A DNA stretch of 64,000 nucleotides from Marsupella aquatica. Lineage: Eukaryota; Plantae; Marchantiophyta. Position numbers and translations under genes: made by a program. Location: positions 12,026,771 through 12,090,770 of the forward strand of contig OZ316891.1 in the NCBI GenBank assembly GCA_973895155.1, written 5' to 3'. Shown here in pieces: positions 15,209-63,749 of this stretch. Positions within the stretch are counted from its first letter, which is position 1. Every line of letters begins with the position of its first letter. Below the pieces are notes generated by a model. That model searched no databases and was not told the origin of the DNA. It was given only the letters and a program-made list of their open reading frames with translations.

Positions 15209-16984
15209 AGTTTTGAAAAGAAAGAGTATTTACAATGTGCATTGGGAGTTTTGAAGTCACTATCCTTGTTCATTGATTTCAATTTGTGGTGCTCAATCTG
15301 CCATAGCCCACACAAGTTGGTCTCAAATCCCTGTAAACCCTGGATAATCACACATTTAACAAACCAATCGAAATGAATCACATCCATCCATCCATCCATT
15401 AGTGTACTTGTGAGGGGATGTGCTCTTATCAAGACATGCAACACCTAGTTTAGTGCACGCCAGATCTCTCTAAGTTTACAGTACTAATGTTTACCTAGTT
15501 TAGCCACGCCCTACATTTTTGAAAAAATCACCGTGTCTCGTAAAATCCTCGGTTACCGTACCGTCCTGGTCACCTGGACATGAGTACCTGAGTCTGCCGT
15601 CTCAGACGACGACAACACATCTGTAGAGACGCTCAGAGGCATTCGTTCTGACCGGTCATCTGAATAATGGAGGGCCGAGATTGCAAGAACTCAAGAACGC
15701 TTTCTTCGGAGTTCAGTGGGCCCAAGAATTTGTTTACGCGCGGGACTTCTCCTCGTGCAGTCTTCACTCTTCGGTTAGTCTTTGGTGAGTATTGAGTCTT
15801 CGCTTCACTGCTCTTGGAAATCTCGTCAGTTTGACATGAATTGCTTTTCTTTTCTTTGCTCGTCTCTGCGCTCGTGTGGAGATGACCTCTTTGCCGTTGT
15901 TTCGAGTATGTTTTCGTAAGAAGGCGAGGAGGGGTGCATGCTTCCTTGGACATCACTCGAACTTCTCCTTTAAATGATTTCATTGTTATGTGATGGAAAT
16001 CGCGCTTTCTGCTTTCTCTCGCGTTTCTGTTTCATGTTTCTGAGTCGAAGGTTAGAAGGCAGGCGGAATGCTGAGTGTCTTCAATGAGATGAGGCGACGA
16101 AGCTGCTCGATTACCAGCGGCTGCGATTTTGGGGCAGGGCATTAAAAATACGACCGGTTTGCGCTTGGCATTGTTCACACAATCGGCCTAAATGAGTCTT
16201 GATCGCCGACGCCGTTACAGTACAGTACTATAGAATTCTTGCTCTGGTCATGATCTCGAATGCCGGTTTTGAAGAGAAGTGTTCAAGACTCTTGTGGATT
16301 CATCATTTGACTGTTGACAGTATCTCAACACTCATCATGCGCGCTTGCGAGCGACACCCGGATGCCGAGTTAATCAAAATCGTCTTGAAATGAGTAGATC
16401 ACAACTGATAACGCTTGTTGTCGAATCACTCCAGGACATGCGACTGGCATTTCCGTCCCGGAATGAGATTTGTCCAAATGTCTACACGGTTCTCACAGGT
16501 CATATCCCGCCGCGTCTTGTCCATCTCAAGCGTTTGTTTTGCGTCTATATAGGCAATCGATCTTAGATTGTACACATCGCAGACGCTGTCCACCGTGAGT
16601 TGATAATTGCAACGGCGTCGCCCTGTGTCCCGTCGTCCTCCGCGGCTCCTGCTTTTTCTACAACTATTCATATTTATTTCGAATGCATCCTCCTTAGTGA
16701 ATCCAAAGCTATTACGGCCCGAGTCTTTCTCCATCGTTCCTTCGCTTAGCCAGATATTGATTCAGATCTCTCGATGCTTGTTGCAGCGACATCTCGGGCT
16801 TTTCCCTGCAATTCTCTCATGCCTACACGTAGCTCGATAGTAAGTTGAAGTCATCCAATTAATTAATGTGCATGTTGTTCTTTTCCACTCGCATCCCTTC
16901 TCCAGCTTTTCATAATTTCTCCAATCCACACCTTGTGTAGGAGTTCACTCCCTTGAAACTTGAAATTCTACTGTAAGTGAAAAC

Positions 16985-18235
16985 ATGAGCGTCATTACAG
17001 ACGCGCCAGAGCAAAATCTTCCTCACGTCCATATTTCTGCTGTTCCTACGAGTGTCCCCGGACCTGGTGAACGGAATTATTTGGACTTGGTGCCCATGCA
17101 TTCGGATTCGGTACCGTTGCTTGCGGATGGTGGGGGACTTGTATCAAAGATCTCGCCTGTTGACGTTGAGGAGGCTATCTCCGGTGTGACTGACGTACAA
17201 CGTCCGTTCTCTTTGGCCGATCATCACGATGGGGAGCGCAAACATGGGCCTTCTGACGCACCGCTTTTAGTGAGGTGTCCCAGAGGAGGTTTGCTGAGGT
17301 TAGGATTCGCATCTTGTGATTTGGCTGGTGGCTCTTGGCAACTGTTACCATTTTCTGTTCTTGTGCCGCGACCACCAGCCGATTTCGCCGGTACCTTCGA
17401 TAGAATTTACAGCGGAGGCGGTCTGGTGCTGATGGAGAAGTTCGCGAAACAGCAGTACCTCCTCGTCGTCAGCAATCCGGCGAGCAACTCACAGCGCCAG
17501 TTGCCGCCAATGATGGAATTCTCCAAACCAGAAATTCTCGGAATTTTCGTCGATAATGCGACGGCGAGTTACAAAATTCCCGTCGTTCAACGCAAGTACA
17601 ATGAAAAGGAGATGGATTTGGTCCTACTGCAGGAGTACGATTCCATCTCGAACTCTTGGGAATTCGCTGGACAATGGAGGAATAGATTTCAAGTGGAGCC
17701 AGTTGGAGCTGTGTACGTGAATGAAGCTCTGTTCTTTCTGACTTACGATAGGCAGACGCATGACGAGGGAAGACAGCAACCTGTTCATCACATCTACTAT
17801 CTCAACGATTATGTGTGGGAGAGGCTGGAGTTACCGTTGGGGCTGGGCTTCCCTGCCATCTTTGAATACAGAGGTAGGCTGATGCTCGCAGGTAGCCTGC
17901 ACTGTGGCGACTTGGACAACGGGGACGGCTCCTCCGCTGAGCAATCGGTGTTCATCTGGGAGCACGAATGGTCGCTCATGAGGTGGAAGGAAGTGTGCAA
18001 CATGCCAGGTCCGTGGGTTGACGAGCTCTACAAATGCGCTCCTGAGGAGGGCAGATGTACGCTGGAAGTCACAGCGGCCGGCAATTTCGTGTGTGTTGCG
18101 AGCTCCAATGGGAAGGTAACTAAATGCGATATAACCAAAAATGAATGGGCCTGGTTATCGAAATGCGACCTTCCGAAGTACGCGGATGGTGACAGCATGT
18201 TGCTCCTTGAACGGAGGCCCGATATCCCCGTATAG
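16985..18235 (+). CDS. F-box-associated/kelch-like beta-propeller protein (416 aa, intronless), no recognisable F-box
   Basis: Motifs GGGLVL...LVVSNPASNSQRQLPPM, YDSISNSW, AVYVNEALFFL, PAIFEYRGRLMLAG, VFIWE...WKEVCNMP, CDITKNEWAWL, typical of the plant F-box/kelch-like family C-terminal region. Confidence 0.8.
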   Translation: MSVITDAPEQNLPHVHISAVPTSVPGPGERNYLDLVPMHSDSVPLLADGGGLVSKISPVDVEEAISGVTDVQRPFSLADHHDGERKHGPSDAPLLVRCPRGGLLRLGFASCDLAGGSWQLLPFSVLVPRPPADFAGTFDRIYSGGGLVLMEKFAKQQYLLVVSNPASNSQRQLPPMMEFSKPEILGIFVDNATASYKIPVVQRKYNEKEMDLVLLQEYDSISNSWEFAGQWRNRFQVEPVGAVYVNEALFFLTYDRQTHDEGRQQPVHHIYYLNDYVWERLELPLGLGFPAIFEYRGRLMLAGSLHCGDLDNGDGSSAEQSVFIWEHEWSLMRWKEVCNMPGPWVDELYKCAPEEGRCTLEVTAAGNFVCVASSNGKVTKCDITKNEWAWLSKCDLPKYADGDSMLLLERRPDIPV

Positions 18236-24000: not shown

Positions 24001-25501
24001 TAGCGCGTAATCTATGCCAATACATGTAACTTCAGAACTCAGACATGTAAGAGACTACATTCAACTCAAAAGTAAAAGCGCTAGCTCGTCGATCAGAATG
24101 AAAATCTTATAATTAAAGTATCCTTTCAAATATTTAGGAAGCGAAGCAATCTAAAGATCGTCTTGGAGTTCTACGCAAAGCAGCGCTCCTCCAGGATTCC
24201 TAATTACTGGCAGTCTAAAGGCCCGAAGCTGAGTAATTTCAGTATTACGTACCCCTCCTTTTGCTTGAGGTATAAATGACAGGGAACCACCGCAATGTAT
24301 ACCAAGTGAGGCTATTTCTATACGAAACCTCTGCTTTAATTTCTTACAAAGTACGTGGTGGAAAGTCTGCGGGAAACTTCTACATAATCATCGTCAGAAG
24401 TGTTCAGACATGTACATCTAATGCTGAAATTCACCTGTAAGTGCCAGCATTGATCCGAATGACGACGCGCTGCGTATTATATTCGGGAACGCTGTCAATA
24501 GCCTTTTGAAGGGAAGAGAAATCTGCATTCTCACCCTGAGAGACGGTAATTGTAATCAGCGGACCTCTTTCCATGGGCGGCGCTCTCCAGGTATGACCGT
24601 GGCTCGCGGTGCTGACATTTTCACCGACAATATCAACGGGAATGAGCTCACTACCTTCGAGGAGTTGGTGCGATTTCTCGTGCCCTGTATCATGTTCGCT
24701 CCCGAAAGATAGTCGTAGAAGTTTTCTTCCGAACAGTCCATTCCGAGAATAGTCATTCTCCTGGCCCAGTCTTCGCGATGCGGAGTGCACTGTCCCACTG
24801 CCAGCAGACGAGTTGCCGAAGTTGTTTCTCGACACAGAGTGGCGCGTAGATGAAAATTGCACAGAACCGTTTCGAGCTGTCGAGCCTAAAAGGCCAATCT
24901 CTTGCTTCGACAAGCTGGATATACCTTTAGGCAAAGATGAAGGGAGAGAATTACGACGAAAGGGACTGGAGTGGTTGGAGGAACTACGAACCAGGGATCG
25001 CGACAGAATCTGCTTTGCATCCGGAGTCCGCTGCCTCTGCGATCTTAGCCGATTGGTGCTTGACATTAAGAGCATGGATGTAGCGTCAGACTTGAGATTA
25101 TGATCGTCGTTAATATAGCTCGCAGTGAGAGCTGCGGATCTACGAACTACTCGAGAATCCGAGAGATTTGTACTTTGAGAACTGGCGTTTTCAGGTAGAC
25201 TGTTTTGTTTCGGCTGTCCATTTACAGACCTCACAGGGAAGACGAGCTCCTTTCGTGACCTCCTTGATAATCCATGTGGATCATGAACCACAATGGAGCA
25301 TCCTACTTGATGACCTAACCGACAATGAGCGGTGATCATCTTATTGGCCCTAATATTTTCTCCAGATGTTCCTAACTCTCGAATTGCATGAAGGGGAACC
25401 TGAATGCAGTCTGTGACAATGGCCAAGCGAGTTAATAGCAGTAACTCCAAAAGATGCGGAATTATGTGAGGTCCAGAATGTTTCCTCATTTGATTCCGCA
25501 T
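21059..25501 (-). CDS. Pectin methylesterase (pectinesterase, CE8); exons 25501-24435, 23750-23501, 23209-23003, 22630-22395, 21242-21059
   Basis: Spliced protein carries [49 protein letters not shown] and GPGAN motifs. Intron phases are consistent and there is an N-terminal hydrophobic segment. Confidence 0.92.
21493..21567. repeat. 26-bp tandem repeat x~3 in the last PME intron
   Basis: GTCCTGGGGAACACATGTTATAAATT repeated. Confidence 0.9.
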
Positions 25502-25786
25502 CGTAGCTACTGCGCGAATTGGCGAGCAAACAATGGACGCCTTGCCGGACGCAAAAGTAGTGAGTGGGAGTGATACCACTCTCTCATCTAGCTAGAACGA
25601 GAGAACCGTTGGGAAAATGATGTTTTCTATATAAGGACACAGAACGTCAAATGTTGTGTAGATTCAAATCCCGTTTCATAGACGACCTTCAGAAGAGGAC
25701 GACCACTGCGTACACGGAGCCAGCGAAAGCTCTAGCCAGCTGATCGAGAATATCAAACAGCTTTTCCGGGTTTCTGACCACTTCAT

Positions 25787-29127: not shown

Positions 29128-29392
29128 CACGCGCTTCAAGTTGATAGCAGCGGTGGACTCTGCTGCCAAAGAGCTTTGGCGATAAACTCCACGGATTGAG
29201 ACGCCCCTGATATTGACTCTACCGAATTCCCCAACTGCAACTTTCCTCTGCCCAGAGAGCACGCGCTCCAAGTTGATAGCAGCGGTGGACGCTGCTGCCA
29301 GAGAGCTTTGCCTATTACCTCCACCAATTGAGACGCCCCAACTATTGACTCTACAGAATTTCCCAAACTGCAACATTCCTCTGCCCAGAGAG
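29128..29392. repeat. 132-bp tandem duplication immediately 3' of the kinase stop
   Basis: CACGCGCT(T/C)CAAGTTGATAGCAGCGGTGGAC... starts at 29128 and 29260. Confidence 0.9.
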
Positions 29393-29430
29393 CATTTACT
29401 GTTGCATACATTTCCATGGCTGCAAGACTT

Positions 29431-31358
29431 CTACTGGTCTTCTAGAAAGACAGCCACGGGTTTCGATCGAGGAATTTTCGGTAGGGGAGTCTTGCCTGTG
29501 AGAATGTTTAGAACATCCCTCATGGTGGGTCTGGCTGCAGGATCCGGGTGACAACACAGCAACCCCACCTTGAGAGCCAGTTTCATTTCTTCCTCCTCGG
29601 CGACGCTTTTGAAGGCCAATTTTGGATCCATCGCATCGAGGAGTTTCTCGTCCTTGTGAAGGTCCCAAACCCAGTCCAAGAGAATGCAGTTGGACGTCAA
29701 CGTCCTCCGAGCACACGACACTTCGAGCACAACCACCCCAAATGCGTATACATCGGTCTTGTCCGTGGCTTTTCCAGTGAGACTGAACTCGGGAGCAAGA
29801 TACCCGATTGTGCCCGCTACCATCGTGGTTCTTGGTGTTTGGCTATGCGCTGATAGACGCGCAAGCCCGAAGTCGCCTAGGCGTCCATTGAAGTGAGAAT
29901 CGAGCATAATGTTGCTTGTCTTAATATCGCGGTGTACAACACGCTGCTCCCACTCCTCGTGTAAGTAAACCAGGGCGGTAGCCACTCCGCAAAAGATGTT
30001 ATAGCGATGCTTCCATGATAAGGGAGACACTGGTGTCCCATCGTCATCACCATGATCGTGGGCAAAGATTAGATCGTCTACGTCCCCATTAGGCATATAC
30101 TCGTACACTAAGATGAGCTCATCTATCTCGTCGCACCAGCCTAGTAGTTGGACGAGGTTGCGATGGCGAAGCTGGGAGATGATGTTCACCTCTGCTATGA
30201 ACTCTCGAGCTCCCTGCCGGGCGTACTGCGATAGTCTTTTCACTGCCACGGGGGCCTGAGGCGAGTCTCGCAAGTAGCCTTTGTATACTGTGCCAAATCC
30301 GCCTTCACCAACGATTAATGAGGGGTTGAAATTATCGGTCGCCAGTTTGAGTTCATTGTAAGAGAATCTCTTCGGTCCCCAGGGCCACTCAATATCGCAA
30401 GCCTCGACGTCCTTGCTGTGCGACGAGTGAGACCGAGAGCGAGAATCCGATGTGTAGGAGAGAACCAACCCTATCCCTTGTCGACCGCTTGATTTCCTTA
30501 GCCTTTGCCAGTAGTTTTTTCTCGTCATGACTGCGAGTACTATCAAGGCTGCGAGCACGGCTAGTGCCACCATAACTCCTATCACTGTGCCCAGAATCCA
30601 GGCCACGTTGTGGTTATGCGTCTTCTTTTCCGTCTTCCCTGTGATAGGACCAACAGAACCAGCGAGGGGTGAGACATCGACGGGAATAGTAACAGCGAAC
30701 CCCATTCCCAATCGACACTCCGTTGGATTTATGAATCCAAACTGGTCTGAAGAGTATTGGGCCGACGCGCTACTGAGATTGTAACCGATCATGGCAAAAT
30801 TTAATCTGCCTGGAGGAATGCCATCGGATGCATCACACTTTTCTGCGGCCTCCAAGGACACTTGCACGACAGGATATGTCCCAAAGACTGCACGTCCGAT
30901 GCACAAGATCGTCAGGATGCAAAATTCTGCAAGTCCGCCTCACTCTCAAACTTTGAAACTCTACAAATTTGTTTAATGTTCTGAATGAGCAGATTCTTTC
31001 ATCACGGGTCCCAGATACTACGGAATATTGTTAAAGTCATTGAAAGCTCTTCCACAACGGGAGATAGGGTATCAAATGGAAAGCTTAGCCTTCACCGAAT
31101 GAAGCGCTGGCTTTGCTTCCTACTCTAAAAGAAAACGGAATGATACTTACCAAGGCAGTCGGTAGTTGTTAGAGTCAGGTTGGATATCCACCCTTGATAG
31201 TTAAATCCAGATGTGTAGTTATCTGGTGAGCTTTGAGAATATTTCCACCCATAAGAACCTCCAACTACAATTATTGTTCCTCCATCGACAGATCGCAATA
31301 TGATTAACCAGAGTGCAGCCGCCAGCAAAGACTGAATCCGAATTCCAATGGATGCCAT
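29431..31358 (-). CDS. Receptor-like kinase: signal peptide + phytocyanin/cupredoxin-like ectodomain + TM + L-type-lectin-RK-like Ser/Thr kinase; exons 31358-31151, 30887-29431
   Basis: Phase-1 GT-AG splice gives ...VGGSYGW...NYQGW...DCLVFGTYPVVQVS...KCD...ECRLGMGFAVTI. TM segment VAWILGTVIGVMVALAVLAALIVLAV. Kinase motifs GPKRFSY, GEGGFG, VAVK, LHEEWEQRVVHRDIK, DFG, GTIGYLAPE. Confidence 0.9.
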
Positions 31359-32692
31359 CTGTATTTCCTACCTAATAGTTCTGCTCATCCTTGTACACAT
31401 CCAAGCTTCGGGGAGTCTTGAGTCGACTGGCGCTTCAGCATCGGAAACAGAGCTACCATCCAAATTTGACCAATTCCTTGATAAGAATCAACGTCCCAAA
31501 GAGTTGAGCTCGATCGAGAAAGAAGCATCAGAGTTGAGTGCAGAGTGTAAGTTCTCATCGCTTCTGTAGAAAATCTTCAACCTGTCGTCTCCCAGTGCCT
31601 GCCAATCCATACGAGGCCACTTGTCCCAACTGTCAATTCAACTCGTACTACCAATCCTGCGCCGGAGGATGATCTCCTCTGAATCCTTCCCTCAGACTCA
31701 CTTATCCATCCTCATCCACCTTCAACAACAGCAGGAACATTCTCGTCGCCCATAATTACATCAAAATCATAGAACTCTCATCTGCAGCTTGACAATCGTT
31801 CACAAATGAGCGAGCATGCAAGTAGTTTCTTTTCATGAAAAAGATGCCTGGCTGCACGCACATCTGCACATCCTCACTGGCTGAGTGCTTCCTCTGGCTG
31901 GTACCTCAACAAAACCTAAATCACCCCCGCCCCCTTTCTCCCGGCCCATAGCTGAACGATGCGTTTAAGAGTTTCGAGGCTGCAGATACAAGCAGACCTG
32001 TAACCGTAAAGCTGCCCACCTCATCCATCCAAATGACTTGAACAATTTCGAGCATTAGTGGACTCCAGTCCTCGTTCGTCTACAGGTACCAGAGCTTCCC
32101 GGCAAGTCTTCAGGATGGAACGGCTGGAGGACCAAGCAACTCAATTAGAAACTAGTCAGTGTAGACCCATATTCTCCCGTATCCAGTGAACGCAGACGCA
32201 GCATCTCTGCTACGTACCTCCTGAGTGGAGTCATTCTTGATTCTCAGGTGTTGATTTGACCCGCAGGACACGAACCTCTTGCACTATATTGGTTCTAGAC
32301 GAAACGTCTCTTGTCTTCACGAGTCAAGACAAGACACACACAGACTGGCTCGATATTGGAAATTGCGGAGCAAGCACGGGAAAGGAATCTGCTATTGCAA
32401 AAGGTCTACGACAGCACATGCGACTGCGCGAGAGTGGGTGGGCTGATGGGTGGGCTGATGTGTCTGTAAAGATTGGCGGATTCTTCGTCAAATGAGCGAC
32501 TGGTCAAACCATAGTCAAAGGAATCAAAAGATTGAACATGGCACTTTATGATCGGTAGTGTAAACGAAATACAGCTGAAGAAATTAGAAAATACACAAGT
32601 CAAAAACCCAATACCACGAGAAATGGAGACTCAAATCATAGTAAACATCGAGTCGTGAGTTCCAGTGATTGCTGCCAGCCCTCTATTGAATA

Positions 32693-52155: not shown

Positions 52156-54013
52156 ATGATGGCAGTCCTCCAAGGGCCGGCGGCAACGCAGTCTCTGCTG
52201 GGCGTTTTGGTGCTCTTTTGGTCCAGTAGGGCAGTTCTGGTAAATGCTGTCGCTGCTTGGGCGGTGACAGATTGGGCGGATGCTCATGCGACTTTCTATG
52301 GTGGACAAGATGCTTCTGGGACAATGGGTATGCAGTGAACTTTCACTATTCCCCTCCCAACCCACTTTCTGTACGCGTTGCTGGAGCAAATGCTCTGAAT
52401 CTCGTCGTCGATGCCGTTTCTGATCTCTTTACCAAACTTTTTTGGAGCAATTAAAATGTAGCTGGGAGTTAGCTGACTCTACTGATGATCCTGTTCCCCG
52501 TGCTGTAATTTATACGTTGCAGGTGGTGCATGTGGATATGGGAACCTCTACAACGTAGGCTACGGAGTCAACACAGCTGCATTGAGTAATGCTCTGTTTC
52601 ACAACGGGTTGAGCTGTGGAGCCTGCTTCCAGCTTGAATGCAACCTTGACCAGACTCGATGGTGCTACCCTGGAGGGAAAACCATTACGATCACGGCAAC
52701 TAACCAATGTCCTCAGGGTTCAGAGGGGGGGTGGTGCGACTGGCCCAAATATCACTTTGATTTGGCATTCCCCATGTTCGCGACACTTGCCCAACCAGTT
52801 GGTGGCGTAATTCCGGTCAGATACAAAAGGTGAGCTCATCCCAGGCCCACCGCAATGAACTGAATTGACTTCCAGCACTTTGTATCGCCGGTCTCTCGTT
52901 TCCCTTCCATGTTGAAACAGACAGAAATCCGATTGAGCGATTGTATCTGACTCATGCTCTGCTGCTATCCTTCAACTTCTTGGCTCCGCTTTGAAAATAA
53001 AATTTCCTCTATGTCACGGCCGTTCTGGTTTCGTTCGTTGGTTGGGAACTTAAAATGTATGGATGGAAATCTTTGTCGTTCTTTCGCCGAACATGGTATT
53101 CCTCTCCATCCGCCATTTATCCTCGTGGACCTTCGACTGCTTTTAGTGGATTTCCAGAAAGTGAAGAATCTATTTACGCATCTGGGAATTGGGTGGGGCC
53201 GTTTATTGTAAACGAGAATAACGTAGCAATGGCAAATATTTCTTGCCGTGAAATGACAGGATAGAGCCCGCCTGAGCCCGTGCTAAAATGAATACATCAC
53301 CTTTGGTAGCAGAGTACTTTGGTCCCAATTCAGTTCTCTCCGATTTGCTGATTCACACGGGATTCCACGTGCCCCATGTTACTCGGGTTAGAGCATAAGT
53401 AGGGAAGATCATCTTAAGGGCTACAGCTTGAAATTTACCTCCAGAGGAAGCAGAGAACTATAAGAACTATGTAAACCTTGACACAGAAAGCTGACCGACA
53501 AAACTAAATCTGTGATATCCAATTGCGTCAGTCATAAGTCCGACTATATTCATGGACCTACTCCGAAGCGCCACCTCTAAAGTATTAGGACCAAGAAAGT
53601 GGGGTACCTGATTAAATTCTTGGCTCAGATGTTTTTGAGCTGGGGTGGATTGTCATTAGGCTTCTTATTCTGACTGGGCAATCGGTTAATTTTCATGTCG
53701 CAGAGTTTCATGCTCGAGACAGGGAGGAGTGCGCTTCAGGATTCTAGGCAATCCATGGTTCAATTACGTCATGGTGTTCAATGTAGCAGGGGGTGGAGAC
53801 ATTTCGGCCCTCGCCATCAGAGGAGATAACACTGACTGGATTTCAATGTCCCAAAACTGGGGTCAGTTCTGGTCTGCCGGTGCCTACGTTGCTGGTCAGA
53901 GCCTGTCATTCAGAGCATCATTGGGCAGTGGACAAACTCTGGAATTTTGGAATGTCGCTGAAAAGAACTGGTGGTTCGGGCAAACTTTCGAGTCGGATTA
54001 CAACTTCAGTTGA
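52156..54013 (+). CDS. EXPA: Alpha-expansin (EXPA); exons 52156-52327, 52523-52829, 53704-54013
   Basis: [90 protein letters not shown]; canonical two-intron layout. Confidence 0.97.
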
Positions 54014-56391: not shown

Positions 56392-58284
56392 CTACTTGTC
56401 CATCCTTTGAAGATAATTTTGGACAGTTTGTAGAACATTTCGAGGGATCTTCAAACCTCTGCCCGCCATGTTTTCTTCTTTCATTCCAGATTTAAAACCA
56501 TACATTGCAGAATTCGCATACTGCCAATGTTGAGTATTCTCACCAAACCCTGGATCTCGTTCCCATGTCTTAGTGGACATGAAACAATTTAGATACCGCG
56601 CACTCTCAGTCACATCAAGTTTACTAGAGTGTTTAGGCCTCCACCATTCAACTGGGAACATTGGAGCGTACTGTCGAGGCAGAGAAGGGTTTGTTGAAGA
56701 TGTAGTTGGGACTTCATGCTTTGGGTCCACCAAACCCAAAGCTCTCACCAACCAGAAATGACCTCCACCATTTTTATTCTCCCAGTCATCCTCGGGTCGA
56801 AGAAATACAAAGTTTCCTTCACAAATATCTTGTAAAGGAATCCATCGTCCTTGTTCTCTCTCAGCTCGAGATCCAACAAATGGTGCTGCTTGATCTTCCA
56901 TCTCTTCCAAGACCTCATTTTGAAGAGCCGTCATCTCTGCATTCTCCTCATCTTCACTTGGAGGACCACTTTGTTCCGGTTGGTTGACCTTGTAACCAGT
57001 GCCGTGGTTAGTCTTAGGCCAAAATCTGTTTTCCAAGGGAAATTGAGTACTTCCCTCCCCTTCTAGTGCGAGCCCATTTGTCAACAACTCCACAATTCTC
57101 TCCCAATATTTCACAAGAGGAAATCTTTCCTTATATGCTATAGATGTCTCATCAGTGCAACTCCTTCTCAAAAAATCAAGGTACTTGTTAAGAAATGGGA
57201 TAATCTCTTCAGATTTTTTGTGTATCTCTCCAATGGATTTAGCTAAGGGCTCTCCACTTGGTAAAAGAAGAGAATTTGTTGTCAGATCTGTTGCCCAAAT
57301 GCACCTTCCACCAACTGGAGCCCAAGCTTGCTTTACATGGGACTTATACTGAAATATTGGTACATTATCTCTCATAGAGAAAAGAAATGATACAGGTTTT
57401 GAGTGACCTTGAATATCTTTCACCTTGAAAGTTTGAAGATATTCTTTGTAAGATGCAACTTCTTGTATCAATCTGGGAACTGGATGAATGCTCTCGCATT
57501 CCCATACCTCTGCCATAAGAGCAAGGAGGGTTGCAACTTCTTTGTGCTGAACTTGATATGATACCTTTGAAAAGAGTGCATCAACATCTTCATGCGTATG
57601 ACCAACCATTAGAAAAGACATTTGAACAGTTTCAAATACTCCTCTACTCACAAGCTCGCTACAAAATGCCATGACAGTCTGGTTTTTGTTGTCCTTTGCT
57701 GAATTATCCATCTGCAATGTTAGGTGCCTTGGCAAGGGCTTGAACGATGGACTGCATTGCTCTCCTTGCATGTCTTCTCCATCATCCTCATCTTGCTGGT
57801 TTGGGACGGTCTCAGTCCGACTCTCAGCTCCATCTTCAGAACCAATATACCTATTCACCGGTATATTCTTTGGTTCCAAATAACCCGTCAAAAATGCTTC
57901 AAAGTCAAGCAGGGCTTGAAAGAAAGGTCTGTGAGGTTCCCAATGAAGGCCATCCAACATGTCACCTGTCTTGTCTCCATTGTACTCTTCAAGGTCTCGA
58001 AGACACTTAGCCAAGGATGTCACCGTGAAATCGGCATCTTCTGGCCAAAGGCCAGTGACACTACAGTGTGCATAAACTCCTGGATCCCTCCCGTGGGTCA
58101 ACATCCCTGTGAGAGCAATAGGTAGCGGCATTCCATGACCCGAAAGAGATTTAGGAGTACTAACCATTTTTGGAATCCATGTCTTTGCTTGATCCATCTT
58201 GTCATGAATAATGCAAAGATATTCTCCTGGGTGTTGTTTGGCAATCACTCGATGAGCGTAGTAAACATATCTACTTGATTCCTC
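56392..58284 (-). CDS. DUF7869-type DDE/D transposase catalytic region (no ATG start; N-terminus probably lost or frameshifted)
   Basis: QEESSRYVYYAHR..AKQHPGEYLCIIHDKMDQAKTWIP, LTGMLTHG, LTLQMDNSAKDNKNQ, GVFETVQMSFLMVGHTHEDVDALFS. Confidence 0.8.
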   Translation of the reverse strand, partial: EESSRYVYYAHRVIAKQHPGEYLCIIHDKMDQAKTWIPKMVSTPKSLSGHGMPLPIALTGMLTHGRDPGVYAHCSVTGLWPEDADFTVTSLAKCLRDLEEYNGDKTGDMLDGLHWEPHRPFFQALLDFEAFLTGYLEPKNIPVNRYIGSEDGAESRTETVPNQQDEDDGEDMQGEQCSPSFKPLPRHLTLQMDNSAKDNKNQTVMAFCSELVSRGVFETVQMSFLMVGHTHEDVDALFSKVSYQVQHKEVATLLALMAEVWECESIHPVPRLIQEVASYKEYLQTFKVKDIQGHSKPVSFLFSMRDNVPIFQYKSHVKQAWAPVGGRCIWATDLTTNSLLLPSGEPLAKSIGEIHKKSEEIIPFLNKYLDFLRRSCTDETSIAYKERFPLVKYWERIVELLTNGLALEGEGSTQFPLENRFWPKTNHGTGYKVNQPEQSGPPSEDEENAEMTALQNEVLEEMEDQAAPFVGSRAEREQGRWIPLQDICEGNFVFLRPEDDWENKNGGGHFWLVRALGLVDPKHEVPTTSSTNPSLPRQYAPMFPVEWWRPKHSSKLDVTESARYLNCFMSTKTWERDPGFGENTQHWQYANSAMYGFKSGMKEENMAGRGLKIPRNVLQTVQNYLQRMDK

Positions 58285-59399
58285 TTGTTAAAATTGTAGG
58301 GCCTTGAACGCAGTACTCCTCTATCACTTACATCCGCATTGAGTTCATCCCTATCCATTGAGTCCATCCTTTCAGAACCTTCCACCAAAATGTCTGACAA
58401 AAATTTTCCATTTGCAACTAGTTTTGTTGAATCAATCCGCCATCGAATCAAACTCACTACTCCCTTGTGGATGTTGGGAAAGTATTGTGCTGCCACGACA
58501 TCTTTCACAGCAATCCCAACATGGTCATCACCAAGAATTTCATCATCAACTGCCGCCGTCACTTGAGGGACAGTGATCGTTCCCGTGGCAACCATTTTGG
58601 TTCGATCCAAACCAGTGTAGAGTTCAACCAACTCTGACATCCAGTTTGCCCGATGAAAATAGTCACACTTAGTGTCTGTGGTGTTTGCCGAACAAGACTG
58701 TGAAACAAAATCCACCTTGTCCTTTTGCTTCTTAGAGGAAGATTTGTTGCTCCCATCGATGTCAACATTCCATACTTTATTGTGGACGTCAGCCACATCC
58801 CATAGAACCCAGGAGCCCTTTGCCTCTTCAATTGTTGCAGCTCCACCATGTGCGTAAGGTAAAGTCTTACTACCATGAATCACATCTGTGATTTTTACAC
58901 TAACCCGAGACTCACCGAGTAATATGTTATGACATCTCTCCATTGGATCAGTCTTGAAAACAACTCCAAAGGCCACACAATGGCCAGAGATAAACATTTC
59001 AACCTCATCACCTGGCCTTAGGGTGGTCGAAGCATCCTCCTGTACATTTGCAGAATTATGGATGTTGTTATCTTTTCGAGTCGAACAACTACCAATACTG
59101 ATGCGTTTTTGAGTAATCTTATCCGCAGATCGATATGCACATGACATATCCCAAATGACACATGAGTCAATGGCATCATGAAGATTTTCCGCCCTAGGCA
59201 TTGGAAAAGGGAGCTTCCTGGTCTCACCAAAGGCCTTCTCAATGAGAACCCCAATTCGATTCTCTCCCAGCACAATATTTTGAAGACTCTCTTGCGGATC
59301 TGTCTTTTGAACTGTCCCATTTCCAACGTCGTAACCATCCATTGTCAAGGTCACATCATCGCCCCTAGAAAACCTTTGAGACATCCTTTTCCTATTATC
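58245..59399 (-). CDS. Exon/ORF with three tandem Tnp1/En-Spm-like (Transposase_23/DUF8039-like) domains
   Basis: Three copies of V(A/G)xGxV...(DP)...ILG(E/D)xxVxVxI...(LP)...W(D/R). Splice acceptor tttttttcagtgtgcag at ~59400. Confidence 0.7.
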   Translation of the reverse strand, partial: DNRKRMSQRFSRGDDVTLTMDGYDVGNGTVQKTDPQESLQNIVLGENRIGVLIEKAFGETRKLPFPMPRAENLHDAIDSCVIWDMSCAYRSADKITQKRISIGSCSTRKDNNIHNSANVQEDASTTLRPGDEVEMFISGHCVAFGVVFKTDPMERCHNILLGESRVSVKITDVIHGSKTLPYAHGGAATIEEAKGSWVLWDVADVHNKVWNVDIDGSNKSSSKKQKDKVDFVSQSCSANTTDTKCDYFHRANWMSELVELYTGLDRTKMVATGTITVPQVTAAVDDEILGDDHVGIAVKDVVAAQYFPNIHKGVVSLIRWRIDSTKLVANGKFLSDILVEGSERMDSMDRDELNADVSDRGVLRSRPYNFNKRNQVDMFTTLIE

Positions 59400-59454
59400 C
59401 TGCACACTGAAAAAAATGGATTAAAAGCAAAGTCATGCAAATTTTGATTCAGAC

Positions 59455-60400
59455 TGCGATCCTCAAAGTCTGGATTTGGACTACGATCCTTCAATTCCGG
59501 ATTTGGACCGGGACCATCCAAGTCCGGATTTGGACTACGATCCTCTGATTCTGGATTTGGACTAGGACCATCCGAGTCCGGATTTTGACCGGGACCATCC
59601 AAGTGCGGATTTGGACTGCAATCCTCCGAGTCTAGATTTGGACTACGATCCTCCGATTATGGATTTGGACTGGGATCATCCGAGTCTGGATTTGGACTGG
59701 AATCCTTCGAGTCTGGATTTGGAGTACGATCCTCCGATTCTGGATTTGGACTGGGACCATCCGAGTCTGGATTTGGACTGGGACCATCCCAGTCCAAAGT
59801 TGGACTAGGACCATCCCAATCCAAACTTGGACTCGGACCATCCCAATCCAAACTAGGACTTGGACCATCCAAGTCCAAACTTGGACTCGGACCATCCCAA
59901 TCCAAAGTTGGACTCGCACTATCCTAATCCAAACTTGGACTCGGACCATCCCAATCCAAACTAGGACTTGGACCATCCAAGTCCAAACTTGGACTCGGAC
60001 CATCCCAATCCAAAGTTGGACTCGGACCATCCCAATCCAAAGTTGGACTCGCACCATCCTAATCCAAACTTGGACTCGGACCATCCCAATCCAAACTAGA
60101 ACTTGGACCATCCAAGTCCAAACTTGGACTCGGACCATCCCAATCCAAAGTTGGACTTGAACCATCCTAATCCAAACTTGGACTCGGACCATCCCAATCC
60201 AAACTAGGACTTGGACCATCCAAGTCCAAACTTGGACTCGGACCATCCCAATCCAAACTAGGACTTGGACCATCCAAGTTTAAACTTGGACTCGGACCAT
60301 CCCAATCCAAAGTTGGACTCGGATGATCCCAATCCAAAGTTGGACTCGGATGATCCTAGTCCACATCCGAATCCAAACTTGGACTAGGACCATCCTAGAC
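59455..60400. repeat. 27-bp palindromic minisatellite, ~35 units, two subtypes
   Basis: GGATTTGGACTGGGACCATCCGAGTCT subtype to ~59790, then CCAAA(C/G)TTGGACTCGGACCATCCCAAT subtype. Confidence 0.95.
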
Positions 60401-60966
60401 CAACCCATAATGTAACGGGAGATAAACTTCAAACATTTTAAGCTAAGAAAATTCCAAATTTAGGAAGACTCCGTATTTTACGGATCTCCCTATATGGTGT
60501 AGCCTAAAGTTTGCGTGGTCTTAAGGTAGACCCTAATGTCTACATACAGTTTCATGAAATAATGAAACCTAGCCTTATATTTGAATGCATTAACCTTATA
60601 CTCACCTTAGTATTAAGATCTGGTAGAATATGAATATCACATCCAAGGGGGATACATTGTTGTCTGTAGATTGGTAAAAACTTTCCCAGAACCCTGAATA
60701 CAAGCTATATGCCACTAAATCTTGGGAGTAAAAAACAAACTGAACCCTAAACCACACATGTCTGTAAAAGATAAACTGAGAGGACCCCAAAAGTCAAGAA
60801 GCTGGCTAAGCTGACCCATTGAAGGTAAGTGGCTCAATACATAACACTTTAAGAGAAACTCCGGATTACATGGAGCTTAGATTTGGGAAACTAGAACAAG
60901 AATGAGCTCCGAAGTGGGCGTCTCCCGAAATATACCCTTTGCTCGAGTCGGCTCAAACGGAAATCG

Positions 60967-61025
60967 CGTGAAGATAAGGGTTGAGTACCCCTTCAACTTA
61001 GCTTGCGGCACACCTTATCTTCACG
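60967..61025. other. Perfect 13-bp inverted repeat enclosing a smaller hairpin
   Basis: CGTGAAGATAAGG (60967-60979) and CCTTATCTTCACG (61013-61025); inner GTTGA...TCAAC. Confidence 0.8.
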
Positions 61026-61433
61026 AGCTTAATTGTGCGGGGACTACCGTGCAAGGCTGTTAGGTAGGCAGGACATCAAGGAAGGAGGCCCGTATGTAGG
61101 GTGCGGGCAACGGGTCGTACGCAGGAGCAGGCCGTACGCACTATCAGGCCGTACGTAGGAGAAGGAGGCAACCGGCCGTACGCAGGCCGGGGTGAGGCAG
61201 GAGGGGGTAAAGGGACGGAGAGGTCCAGCCAGGACCTCATTCTCATTCTCACTCTTTCGCTCCTCACTCTGCTCACGCTCTCCACTCTCCGCCTCCGCTC
61301 TCTGCTCTTTGCCTCCACTCGCTCGCTCTCCTCGCTCTTTGCTCTCCGCTCTCTCTCTGCCTCCCCGCCTCCGCCTGCTTCCGCCTCCACCTCCATTCTT
61401 TTTCATTGCCCTAAATCGGACGCCTGCTAAGAA

Positions 61434-61458
61434 GCCACGTGTCACTCTGCCACGTGTC
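61434..61458. promoter_or_regulatory. Two G-box/ABRE-like motifs
   Basis: GCCACGTGTC at 61434-61443 and 61449-61458. Confidence 0.4.
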
Positions 61459-61464
61459 AGAAAG

Positions 61465-63749
61465 ATGGAAGCGAATCGCGTCCTTGTGAAGTCCTCCGTG
61501 GAAGCAACAGAGGAGTTTGACCTCTCCTCTATGAGCGACAGTGTAGAACTGGCACTTGAAGACTCCAGACAATTTCAATCAAGAATCCCTAGTAAGTATC
61601 CATCACCTATCCTCCCTAAGTCTTAGAGGACTGGGACCATCCGAGTCCAAAGTTGGACTCGGATGATCCCAATCCAAACTTGGACTCGGACCATCCCAAT
61701 CCGAACTTGGACTCAGATGATCCTAATCCAAACATGGACTCGGATGATCCCAATCCAAAGTTGGACTCGGATGATCCCAGTCCAAAGTTGGACTCGGATG
61801 ATCCCAATCCAAAGTTGGACTCGGACCATCCCAATCCGAACTTGGACTCAGATGATCCTAATTCAAACGTGGACTCGGATGATCCCAATCCAAACTTGGA
61901 CTCGGATGATCCTAATCCATCCAGGAGATTGAATCTCGATTGTAGGAGCAAGTCTAAAACCATCTCAAGTTGGACTAGGACCATCCTAATCCAACAAGAG
62001 TTATTCAAATGTTTTAAACTTAATAAGTCTAACATGGATGACGTTTTTATGATGCAGGGAGCGATCTTGTTGGTTTCAAACCCGCGATTGCACCGACCGA
62101 CTGCCGGGATGGATTCTTACTAGATGAGAGATCCCCAGGCTTCCGATGGGGGCTTGAGTTCTCAAGAACCCCGCTTAATAATGAAGTGCCATCAAGCACG
62201 ATTGAACCTGTTTTGACCTTAAAGTGCAGAGCAAATGATAGCCTGACTTTGGTTTGCGGACCTGTGGTCTCTGTTGGCATTGGAGGGACAGGGATGAATT
62301 TGGTCATTCTGGAGATGCACGATAGGTCATGCTGGGTTATAAGTTAACCTTATGTCAAAGGCATACTCCTCAGAATTCAATGTCGAATGGCACGCAAGTG
62401 GTGAATTGAGCGTTTTGTCAATGGGATTTTTTCCAAAGACATATGACACAAAGAAGTTGGTCATCGGGGTAACTGGTATGCTTCCAGTCGACATTATGTA
62501 TGGGTTTCAATATTTGAAACTCAACATGATGAAGCACCAAGGCAATTTCTCTTTTGCAACTACTTGGACGTTAAGCAATTTACTTGAGAAAGTTGGATTG
62601 TTATCATTGGAGTCAGAGGAGCCTGGTGTTTTAATTGATAAGGATGTTGCATTTGATCCCAACTTTGATTTAGTCAAAGCAAAGCAATGGATAGAATCTT
62701 TGTCAAAGACGAGAAACCTTCCAACGGTGAATACAAACCCTGTGCCCGAGAAGGCGCCAGAGAAAGCTCCAGAACCTACAACAGAGACCGCGGGAACTAC
62801 AGCAGCAACCTCTCAAAGAGCAGTGGGAAAACAAAAACAAAGCCAAAGGAAACCTCCGGTTGAAAAGAGACTTCCAGTTGAGAAGCCGGTTGAGAAGCCG
62901 AGTACGAGAAGCCGAGTTCAGAAGCCAGTTGAGAAGCCGAGTACGAGAAGCCAAGTTGAGAAGCCAGTTGAGAAGAAACGTCCGGTTGAGAAGCCAAGTG
63001 CAAGTGAAAAGAGGCCAAGACAAAAGAAGAAACAGAAAATTGACAGTGCCATCATGGATGACACTACAGAAAACCTGACAGTGCATTCACAAGATATGGA
63101 CGAGCAGTTGGACGCTCCTGAGGAGAAGAAGGTCTTAGAAGGTAATGAGGGACTGCAACAAATGGAGCAATATTATACGTTTGGGATCAATTCGATATTT
63201 TCTATTCCCGTAGAGAGTATTTTCCCTGCGTCGGCAAGACTCTGTTACAGAATGTTGAATGCAAACCATGTAAAGGAGGTGGCCAATTCCATGATAAGAA
63301 ATCCGGGGCATGAACCACACATAGCAGACTTGATTCCTTACACTACAAAACATAGAAACCTAATGCAATATGACAACACGGAATCAGATAGGAGGGACTT
63401 TGTAGCAGCCGTGAAAAAGGGGGAGGTTCAATTCCTTGCCATTAGCGGTCAACATTCGGCCAGAGCAGCCAGATGGATTCGAGAATGGGCAAACAAGGAT
63501 GCCAAGCTAACAGCATTGGCAAAAAAGCTGGAATTTCGAAAGTCAAGAATATTATCTCATCGAACACCATCGTCAATATTAGTTGAGCATTCAATGCGAT
63601 CTAATGCTATCAATAGCACGATGGTGTTTCAGTCATGCTTCAAAGATACAGTCGTTCATGCTAGGCGGCAATTTGTGGAATGTGGAAAATCTAGCCGGCC
63701 AAAACATGGGGACAACAAAACAAACGCTCAAGACAATCAAAAATTTCAG
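61465..63749 (+). CDS. ParB/sulfiredoxin-like domain protein (TE cargo); predicted exons 61465-61591 and 62058-63749, one frameshift near 62341, probably continues beyond the window
   Basis: Phase-1 splice A|GTAAGT...GCAG|GG gives an open frame to TAA at 62345. The +1 frame is open 62352-63770 with PVEKP repeats, an NLS-like KRPRQKKKQK, and FSIPVESI..YRMLNANHVKEVANSM..P..FLAISGQHSARAA. Donor CAG|GTACGA at 63749. Confidence 0.6.
61627..61995. repeat. Second 27-bp palindromic array (~11 units plus an outlier)
   Basis: TTGGACTCGGA(TGA/CCA)TCCCAATCCAAA(C/G) repeated. Confidence 0.95.

Follow-up and report, generated by a model that had tools for sequence, protein, structure and literature searches.

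Ectodomains set what plant receptor kinases perceive, and the question raised by one locus of the liverwort Marsupella aquatica (assembly GCA_973895155.1, contig OZ316891.1) is what is perceived by a kinase of the lectin receptor type that carries a phytocyanin-like domain. The locus lies on the reverse strand, at 29431..31358 of the analysed stretch of 64,000 nucleotides (hereafter the window, from whose first letter all positions are counted). The reading preferred here, with a probability of about 0.62, is that of a single-pass receptor kinase with a copper-free binding surface of phytocyanin fold for an extracellular ligand or a partner receptor, probably in microbe-related or cell-wall signalling. 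On its separate parts, a role in recognition or as a co-receptor is quite probable, while the immunity or microbe context falls somewhat short of an even chance.

The coding part consists of two exons. Exon 1 (31151..31358, reverse strand, 208 nt, phase 1) begins with the ATG at 31358 and encodes a predicted signal peptide (aa 1 to ~26) and the initial third of the phytocyanin-like domain, and exon 2 (29431..30887, reverse strand) encodes the remainder of the ectodomain, a linker, the transmembrane helix, a Ser-rich juxtamembrane part and the kinase, with the stop at 29431. The intron between them (30888..31150, reverse strand, 263 nt, phase 1) is of the GT-AG type (GTAAGT...GTGCAG) and falls between the D.L and the VF of the ectodomain. 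The spliced exons give a single open frame of 554 aa, with no internal stop, for a protein with the order of signal peptide, ectodomain, one transmembrane helix and intact RD kinase. By hydropathy, the N-terminus is hydrophobic and signal-like over aa 1-33, and the homologues P0001 and P0020 begin similarly. The phytocyanin-like ectodomain (30682..31280, reverse strand, aa 27-138, ~112 aa), which is split by the intron, has three N-glycosylation sequons; the single predicted transmembrane helix (30526..30603, reverse strand, aa ~165-190) has a Kyte-Doolittle peak of 3.15, with basic residues next to it. The RD-type Ser/Thr kinase (29503..30315, reverse strand) matches PF07714 (E 1.9e-43) and PF00069 (E 8.5e-43), retains the complete set of catalytic motifs (GxGxxG, VAVK, the alphaC Glu, HRDIK, DFG and APE), and is placed in the RLK-Pelle L-LEC group by motifs and tree. 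Both the kinase and the ectodomain occur in a single copy within the 64 kb.

The reading frame is insufficient to choose the acceptor, because 7 of the 24 AG acceptors examined with the same donor, from 31060 to 30700, keep it open. The junction has been found instead in the 2723-nt contig 1 of the run X1, where 31152 is joined to 30887 and a single replaced letter stands at the joint, so that exactly the predicted intron is skipped; X1 comes from a relative less than 90% alike (~89% identical) and is RNA by guess, intron loss in the DNA of X1 being also possible. The same spliced contig aligns to 31455, which gives a likely 5' untranslated region of 31359..31455 (reverse strand) as a minimum extent, the start site not being readable from the contig. 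Four runs were compared at the locus (X1, X2, X3 and X5), and in X2, X3 and X5, near-identical to the window, the intron is retained. The family HMM gives exon 1 a score of 39 bits, and the homologues are full-length annotated proteins with the same layout. Thus, the splicing of exon 1 to the kinase exon, as proposed in the original prediction, is borne out by the contig of the relative and by the open frame. The motifs named there are all present in the spliced protein, both those of the ectodomain (VGG..GW, NY..W, D.LVF across the junction, V.QV, C87 and C127..GM131.F.V.I) and those of the lectin receptor kinase type (GPKRFSY and LHEEWEQRVVHRDIK).

The ectodomain is recognised as a phytocyanin most clearly in its spliced form, which, when scored with an HMM built from 138 kinase-free phytocyanin domains, reaches 32.2 bits (P 4e-12), against 7.3 for the best of 1000 shuffles and 15.2 and 9.7 bits for the exon pieces alone; the 138 domains derive from 147 new proteins retrieved with the family profile, which is a mild bias. 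On an HMM of nine homologue domains built without the window, the score is 71 bits (best of 500 shuffles, 6.2). Neither of the two exon pieces matches PF02298 separately, and the cut-off of this Pfam family is passed by three of the seven family proteins and two of three further cluster members. The four below it (P0003, P0008, P0009 and P0001, the nearest homologue) have the same motifs in the alignment. With four of seven family proteins missing PF02298, the window-type ectodomain is, as judged by profiles, strongly diverged; four other family members score 54-83 bits on the canonical phytocyanin HMM versus 32 for the window domain. The family profile matches five phytocyanins of the PDB (E 3e-15 to 7e-6), and the AlphaFold model of the ectodomain of P0020 (pLDDT 89.8) superposes on mavicyanin with a TM of 0.81 and a Z of 16.9 (rmsd 2.0, 105 residues aligned). 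Umecyanin, stellacyanin and plantacyanin are also matched by this model, with Z from 16.9 to 11.4, the best non-phytocyanin being an ephrin with 7.2. The domain of P0020 is 33% identical to that of the window, whose fold is read through 33-46% identity to homologues; the architecture and the phytocyanin (cupredoxin) fold of the window protein are very probable, and the phytocyanin-type ectodomain first seen in the motifs is upheld by profile and model alike.

Most phytocyanins have a conserved phase-1 intron in the domain, according to the portions consulted of PMC4499708, and the phase-1 intron of the locus therefore fits the capture of the 5' part of such a gene. The searches started from the ectodomain returned little on fusions. 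When the exon-2 ectodomain region was used for a word-based search, none of 215 candidates matched, and the ectodomain profile run against the longer proteins (7992 candidates) returned four, all of them its own inputs, which is weak evidence. Among 1.84 billion representatives, HMMER found 1911 matches, the best 150 of which were mostly multi-domain phytocyanins; a kinase was present in none of the 147 new proteins among these 150, and the scan is no gauge of how widely the fusion occurs. No locus turned up in two metagenome scans.

The copper site is where the domain departs from the blue copper phytocyanins (plantacyanin, uclacyanin, stellacyanin), which bind the metal by His, Cys, His and an axial Met or Gln. 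The window protein has no His or Cys in the columns of His1, Cys and His2, in an alignment that is gapped around His1 and the copper Cys, and keeps of the four ligands Met131 alone, together with the disulfide pair C87/C127. The ectodomain contains no His at all, the only two before the membrane being at positions 160 and 162. His1, Cys and His2 are absent from all 12 aligned domains of the liverwort family, while the disulfide Cys pair is found in 12 of 12 and the axial Met in 10; the His/Cys/His set occurs in 102 of the 138 canonical domains. A third Cys of the window domain, C68, is probably unpaired and is lacking in the other 11 family domains aligned. The loss of both His and the Cys ligands with retention of the disulfide pair and the axial Met, claimed from the motifs, is thus confirmed by alignment, and type-1 copper is very probably absent from the window ectodomain; copper-free behaviour of the receptor would be expected from the ligand loss. 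A phytocyanin domain without the copper ligands is the definition of the ENODLs, which do not bind copper, as far as PMC4499708 was covered; the loss seen here may be independent of the ENODL clade.

The kinase was followed by a search with exon 2, which gave 6780 matches among 7992 scored candidates, and the following counts refer to the best 120. After removal of 43 tandem-kinase proteins and one partial match, 76 sequences and the window entered the kinase tree, in which nine family rows stand on one side of a branch supported by 74/99 (bootstrap 74), the long angiosperm branches disturbing the topology. In a reduced tree of 53 rows, from which seven long rows and 17 near-copies had been taken out and which has SH-aLRT supports only and no outgroup from outside L-LEC, the support is 99 for the family, 100 for the family with a clade of Marchantia and Riccia, and 95 for both with the liverwort lectin kinases. 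The window kinase is thereby a member of a liverwort clade among the L-LEC kinases, sister to the MpRLK-Pelle_L-LEC2 clade, and the predicted L-LEC type of the kinase holds. The legume lectin domain PF00139 has no match in either window exon, nor in any of the seven family proteins, whereas it is carried by 46 of the 120 listed matches; PF02298 is carried by four (P0007, P0010, P0020 and P0118). The closest single-kinase proteins among the 120 are six clusters of Calypogeia fissa and two Logan proteins, followed by Marchantia and Riccia. P0001, from Calypogeia fissa, is 66% identical to the window protein (85% in the kinase), the family ectodomains are 31-46% identical to the window domain, and P0010 has two tandem phytocyanin-like domains. 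Two of the Calypogeia genes are apparently neighbours, by their accession numbers and the lengths of their contigs.

The replacement of a lectin by a phytocyanin domain is the simplest reading of this distribution in a tree without a proper outgroup. The gene would have arisen when an L-LEC kinase exchanged its lectin domain for the first exon, the intron and the domain of a secreted phytocyanin gene. The proposal of a rare receptor created by an ectodomain swap thus stands for the phytocyanin domain on an L-LEC kinase, the direction of the swap resting on a tree with no proper outgroup from outside L-LEC, and its rarity is to be restated, for the gene is one of a liverwort family and its layout has already been counted in surveys of receptor kinases. 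Domain swapping in receptor kinases is well known (PMC10834447, consulted in part). Another ectodomain swap on the L-LEC kinase group is represented by the LysM ectodomains of P0099, P0114, P0115 and P0116 (Sphagnum and others), which form one clade with support 100/100.

The sister clade contains the Marchantia cluster named MpRLK-Pelle_L-LEC2 (Mp1g13200), for which the domain scan gave no lectin match. The kinases P0013/P0121 (MpRLK-Pelle_L-LEC2 itself), P0015, P0018, P0019 and P0023, named or classed as L-LEC, have a Cys-containing all-beta ectodomain, unannotated and with no lectin match; in the parts consulted of one immunity preprint (10.1101/2024.08.14.607940), MpRLK-Pelle_L-LEC2 is termed a lectin receptor kinase. 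The model of the ectodomain of this clade is all-beta (pLDDT 77); its top rows in Foldseek are mostly cupredoxins, which are weak (best E 7e-4, TM 0.47), and VIA gave the best Z of 7.0 to a phage baseplate domain and 5.0 to plantacyanin. This ectodomain has no profile match to the liverwort family, and its score with the canonical phytocyanin HMM does not exceed 1.1 bits.

A further cluster of 11 members, including P0118, P0125 and P0128-P0133, has PF02298 fused to an L-LEC-type kinase, with His/Cys/His kept and Val in the axial place; the kinase of P0118 falls in with Sphagnum L-LEC and LysM kinases in the tree. A single clade holding P0118 and the liverwort family was rejected by the AU test (p-AU 0.0003, in the 53-row tree, where P0118 is a long branch); the idea of a separate origin had been set before the tree, and the test was run after the full tree. 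The sequences are evidence for the P0118-type lineage being a second, independent fusion of a phytocyanin with an L-LEC kinase, moss-like by its kinase placement, and its proteins are candidate copper-binding receptor kinases. The gene calls of this cluster start just before VF and differ in the first residues, which suggests that the intron is shared with the window gene and that the first exon was overlooked. A wider picture, speculative and rather doubtful, is that cupredoxin receptors on L-LEC kinases were built at least twice in the bryophytes, as a diversifying liverwort recognition receptor that dropped its copper, goes back to the liverwort ancestor and includes MpRLK-Pelle_L-LEC2, and as a moss-like, redox-sensing one with the copper site. 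If true, plants would have in the two lineages a class of cell-surface receptors not described so far, for which Marchantia offers an available gene to knock out; MpRLK-Pelle_L-LEC2 (Mp1g13200) would be mislabelled, and the receptor kinase of the moss-like lineage would sense redox state through blue copper.

For the function of the liverwort receptor, selection was estimated against X1 from one contig, with 37 of the 41 ectodomain differences and the first 40 kinase differences. The exon-2 part of the ectodomain (198 nt) gave dN 0.16, dS 0.41 and dN/dS 0.39, and the kinase's C-lobe (441 nt) dN 0.027, dS 0.38 and dN/dS 0.07; C127 and M131 are unchanged between the window and X1. On these estimates, the ectodomain is under constraint and yet faster than the kinase, ~6-fold at amino-acid sites, as expected of a recognition surface. 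The protein would reside in the plasma membrane by its predicted topology, the glycosylated, disulfide-stabilised and copper-free cupredoxin domain would bind a ligand or a partner receptor, and the RD kinase, by analogy with established receptor kinase biology, would be activated by phosphorylation and pass the signal on. Recognition of a molecule or a partner is preferred over that of a metal because the copper-binding residues are lost, and the copper-free phytocyanins ENODL14/15 are known to bind FERONIA in fertilisation (PMC6726743, consulted in part). An immunity context is suggested by the faster ectodomain change, the expansion of paralogues and the observation that MpRLK-Pelle_L-LEC2 is more strongly phosphorylated in the pathogen-resistant Mpbir mutants (10.1101/2024.08.14.607940, in the parts consulted), this last hint coming from a sister clade whose ectodomain has no profile match to that of the window.

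The nearest alternative differs in the context alone, since it shares the copper-free binding mechanism: the receptor would be developmental or reproductive, with a built-in ENODL-like module sensing wall proteins or peptides in the manner of the ENODL-FERONIA pair. This is rather unlikely, although the absence of copper binding in ENODLs and the binding of FERONIA by ENODL14/15 speak for it, as do, weakly, the pectinesterase and expansin genes of the same window; the kinase belongs to the L-LEC group and not to CrRLK1L, and the sole functional hint for the wider clade is from the immunity study, as far as it was covered. Kinases with short ectodomains, such as SOBIR1 and the SERKs, are of the adaptor or co-receptor type, and with just ~112 aa, the ectodomain might likewise be a short docking or spacer module of a kinase without a ligand of its own. 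The low identity of the family ectodomains (31-46%) would agree with a spacer, and so would the sister clade, where a kinase of the same clade bears a beta-sandwich that is either another one or diverged beyond recognition. Adaptor kinases, however, tend to be conserved and small in number, and the six divergent clusters of Calypogeia fissa, one with a doubled domain, as well as the ~6-fold faster ectodomain, make such a module unlikely.

Sensing of copper or of redox state through a remodelled site, at M131, the extra C68 or the disulfide, is very unlikely: 10 of the 12 family domains, and X1, still have the axial Met, and a metal signal for such ectodomains has been suggested with metaRLK (10.1101/2023.12.21.572927, seen in part), but His1, Cys and His2 are gone in 12 of 12, the domain has no His, C68 is missing in the other 11 domains and the Met may be structural. 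That exon 1 comes from another or a dead gene, or that the whole is a pseudogene, is hardly credible; seven acceptors keep the frame open and RNA of Marsupella aquatica itself was not among the runs compared, while the joint is exact in X1, the homologues are full-length with the same layout, and the frame is open and under purifying selection.

The protein shares with the RLK-Pelle L-LEC kinases (MpRLK-Pelle_L-LEC2, L-LEC29) the kinase group, the signal peptide, the single transmembrane helix and the RD kinase, but where the L-LEC receptor kinases have a legume lectin, it has the phytocyanin-like domain of 112 aa, which contains a phase-1 intron of its own, and it is not an L-type lectin receptor kinase in the sense of architecture, for which PF00139 is required. 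With ENODLs and phytocyanins (mavicyanin, stellacyanin, umecyanin, plantacyanin), it has in common the fold (predicted on a homologue), the disulfide pair, the signal peptide and the phase-1 intron, and with ENODLs also the loss of the copper ligands. ENODLs, however, are GPI-anchored or secreted, with an AGP-like tail and no kinase, whereas the window protein has a transmembrane helix and a kinase and is more diverged. The P0118-type moss-like kinases are of the same kind of fusion but keep His/Cys/His and belong to a different kinase clade.

The layout of a PF02298-type ectodomain, a transmembrane helix and a kinase is that of the Plastocyanin-like-RLK or Cu_bind_like RLKs of RLPredictiOme, metaRLK and metaRLK 2.0, surveys in which such proteins are only counted and may belong to the liverwort clade or to others. 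In the sections consulted, 12 'Plastocyanin-like-RLK' proteins are given for 80 genomes (PMC9603095, Table 1), Cu_bind_like is proposed as a metal-sensing ectodomain (10.1101/2023.12.21.572927, section 7), and 77-79 such kinases are counted among 311,581 RLKs in the supplements of metaRLK 2.0 (PMC13174206); neither the main text nor the family table of the latter mentions Cu_bind_like RLKs (12 of its 14 supplements searched). The suggested metal binding is at odds with the copper-less liverwort clade. The only liverwort found in the species list of metaRLK 2.0 is Marchantia polymorpha, with no Calypogeia and no Riccia. An ESM Atlas cluster of 65 members has PF02298 on 80%. A match was absent from 12 of the 21 supplementary files of PMC10152718, and a literature search, subscription papers being mostly uncovered, found no work on the function of any phytocyanin receptor kinase. 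No named or characterised family emerged for the architecture of PF02298 with a kinase, although the layout itself had already been counted (12 to 79 proteins in surveys). New here are the copper-less liverwort family, its tie to a gene of a model plant and the evidence for a second fusion keeping the copper site.

An ENODL-like module, so far a separate GPI-anchored partner of FERONIA, would here be placed directly on a kinase. Two assumptions in the databases are challenged: that metal is sensed by Cu_bind_like RLKs, the site being lost in the liverwort clade, and that a kinase with the name L-LEC bears a lectin, there being no lectin match for MpRLK-Pelle_L-LEC2. With a copper-less version in one lineage and a putatively copper-competent one in another, a comparison is provided by nature, and the sister clade is open to genetics in Marchantia; the importance is moderate, because domain swapping in receptor kinases is known and the layout already counted.

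Besides the receptor kinase, the window contains several other features. The match of the X1 contig ends at the stop codon of the kinase, so that the two organisms differ in the 3' region, and a 132-bp tandem duplication with copies 88% alike (29128-29394) lies just 3' of this stop. The first exon of a pectinesterase-like gene (24431-25591, reverse strand) has a weak PF01095 match and an unusually long Ser/Arg-rich N-terminal region of ~345 aa, and an expansin gene of at least two exons (52489-54013, forward strand) matches DPBB_1 and Expansin_C. An intronless ORF of 423 aa (16964-18235, forward strand) has no Pfam match at E 0.01, and presumably, by eye, resembles a kelch/beta-propeller domain. 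A DUF7869 ORF (E 1e-43; 56392-59420, reverse strand) overlaps an upstream ORF and adjoins 27-bp tandem arrays in both orientations (59452-61919), which together are possibly a transposon with subterminal repeats.
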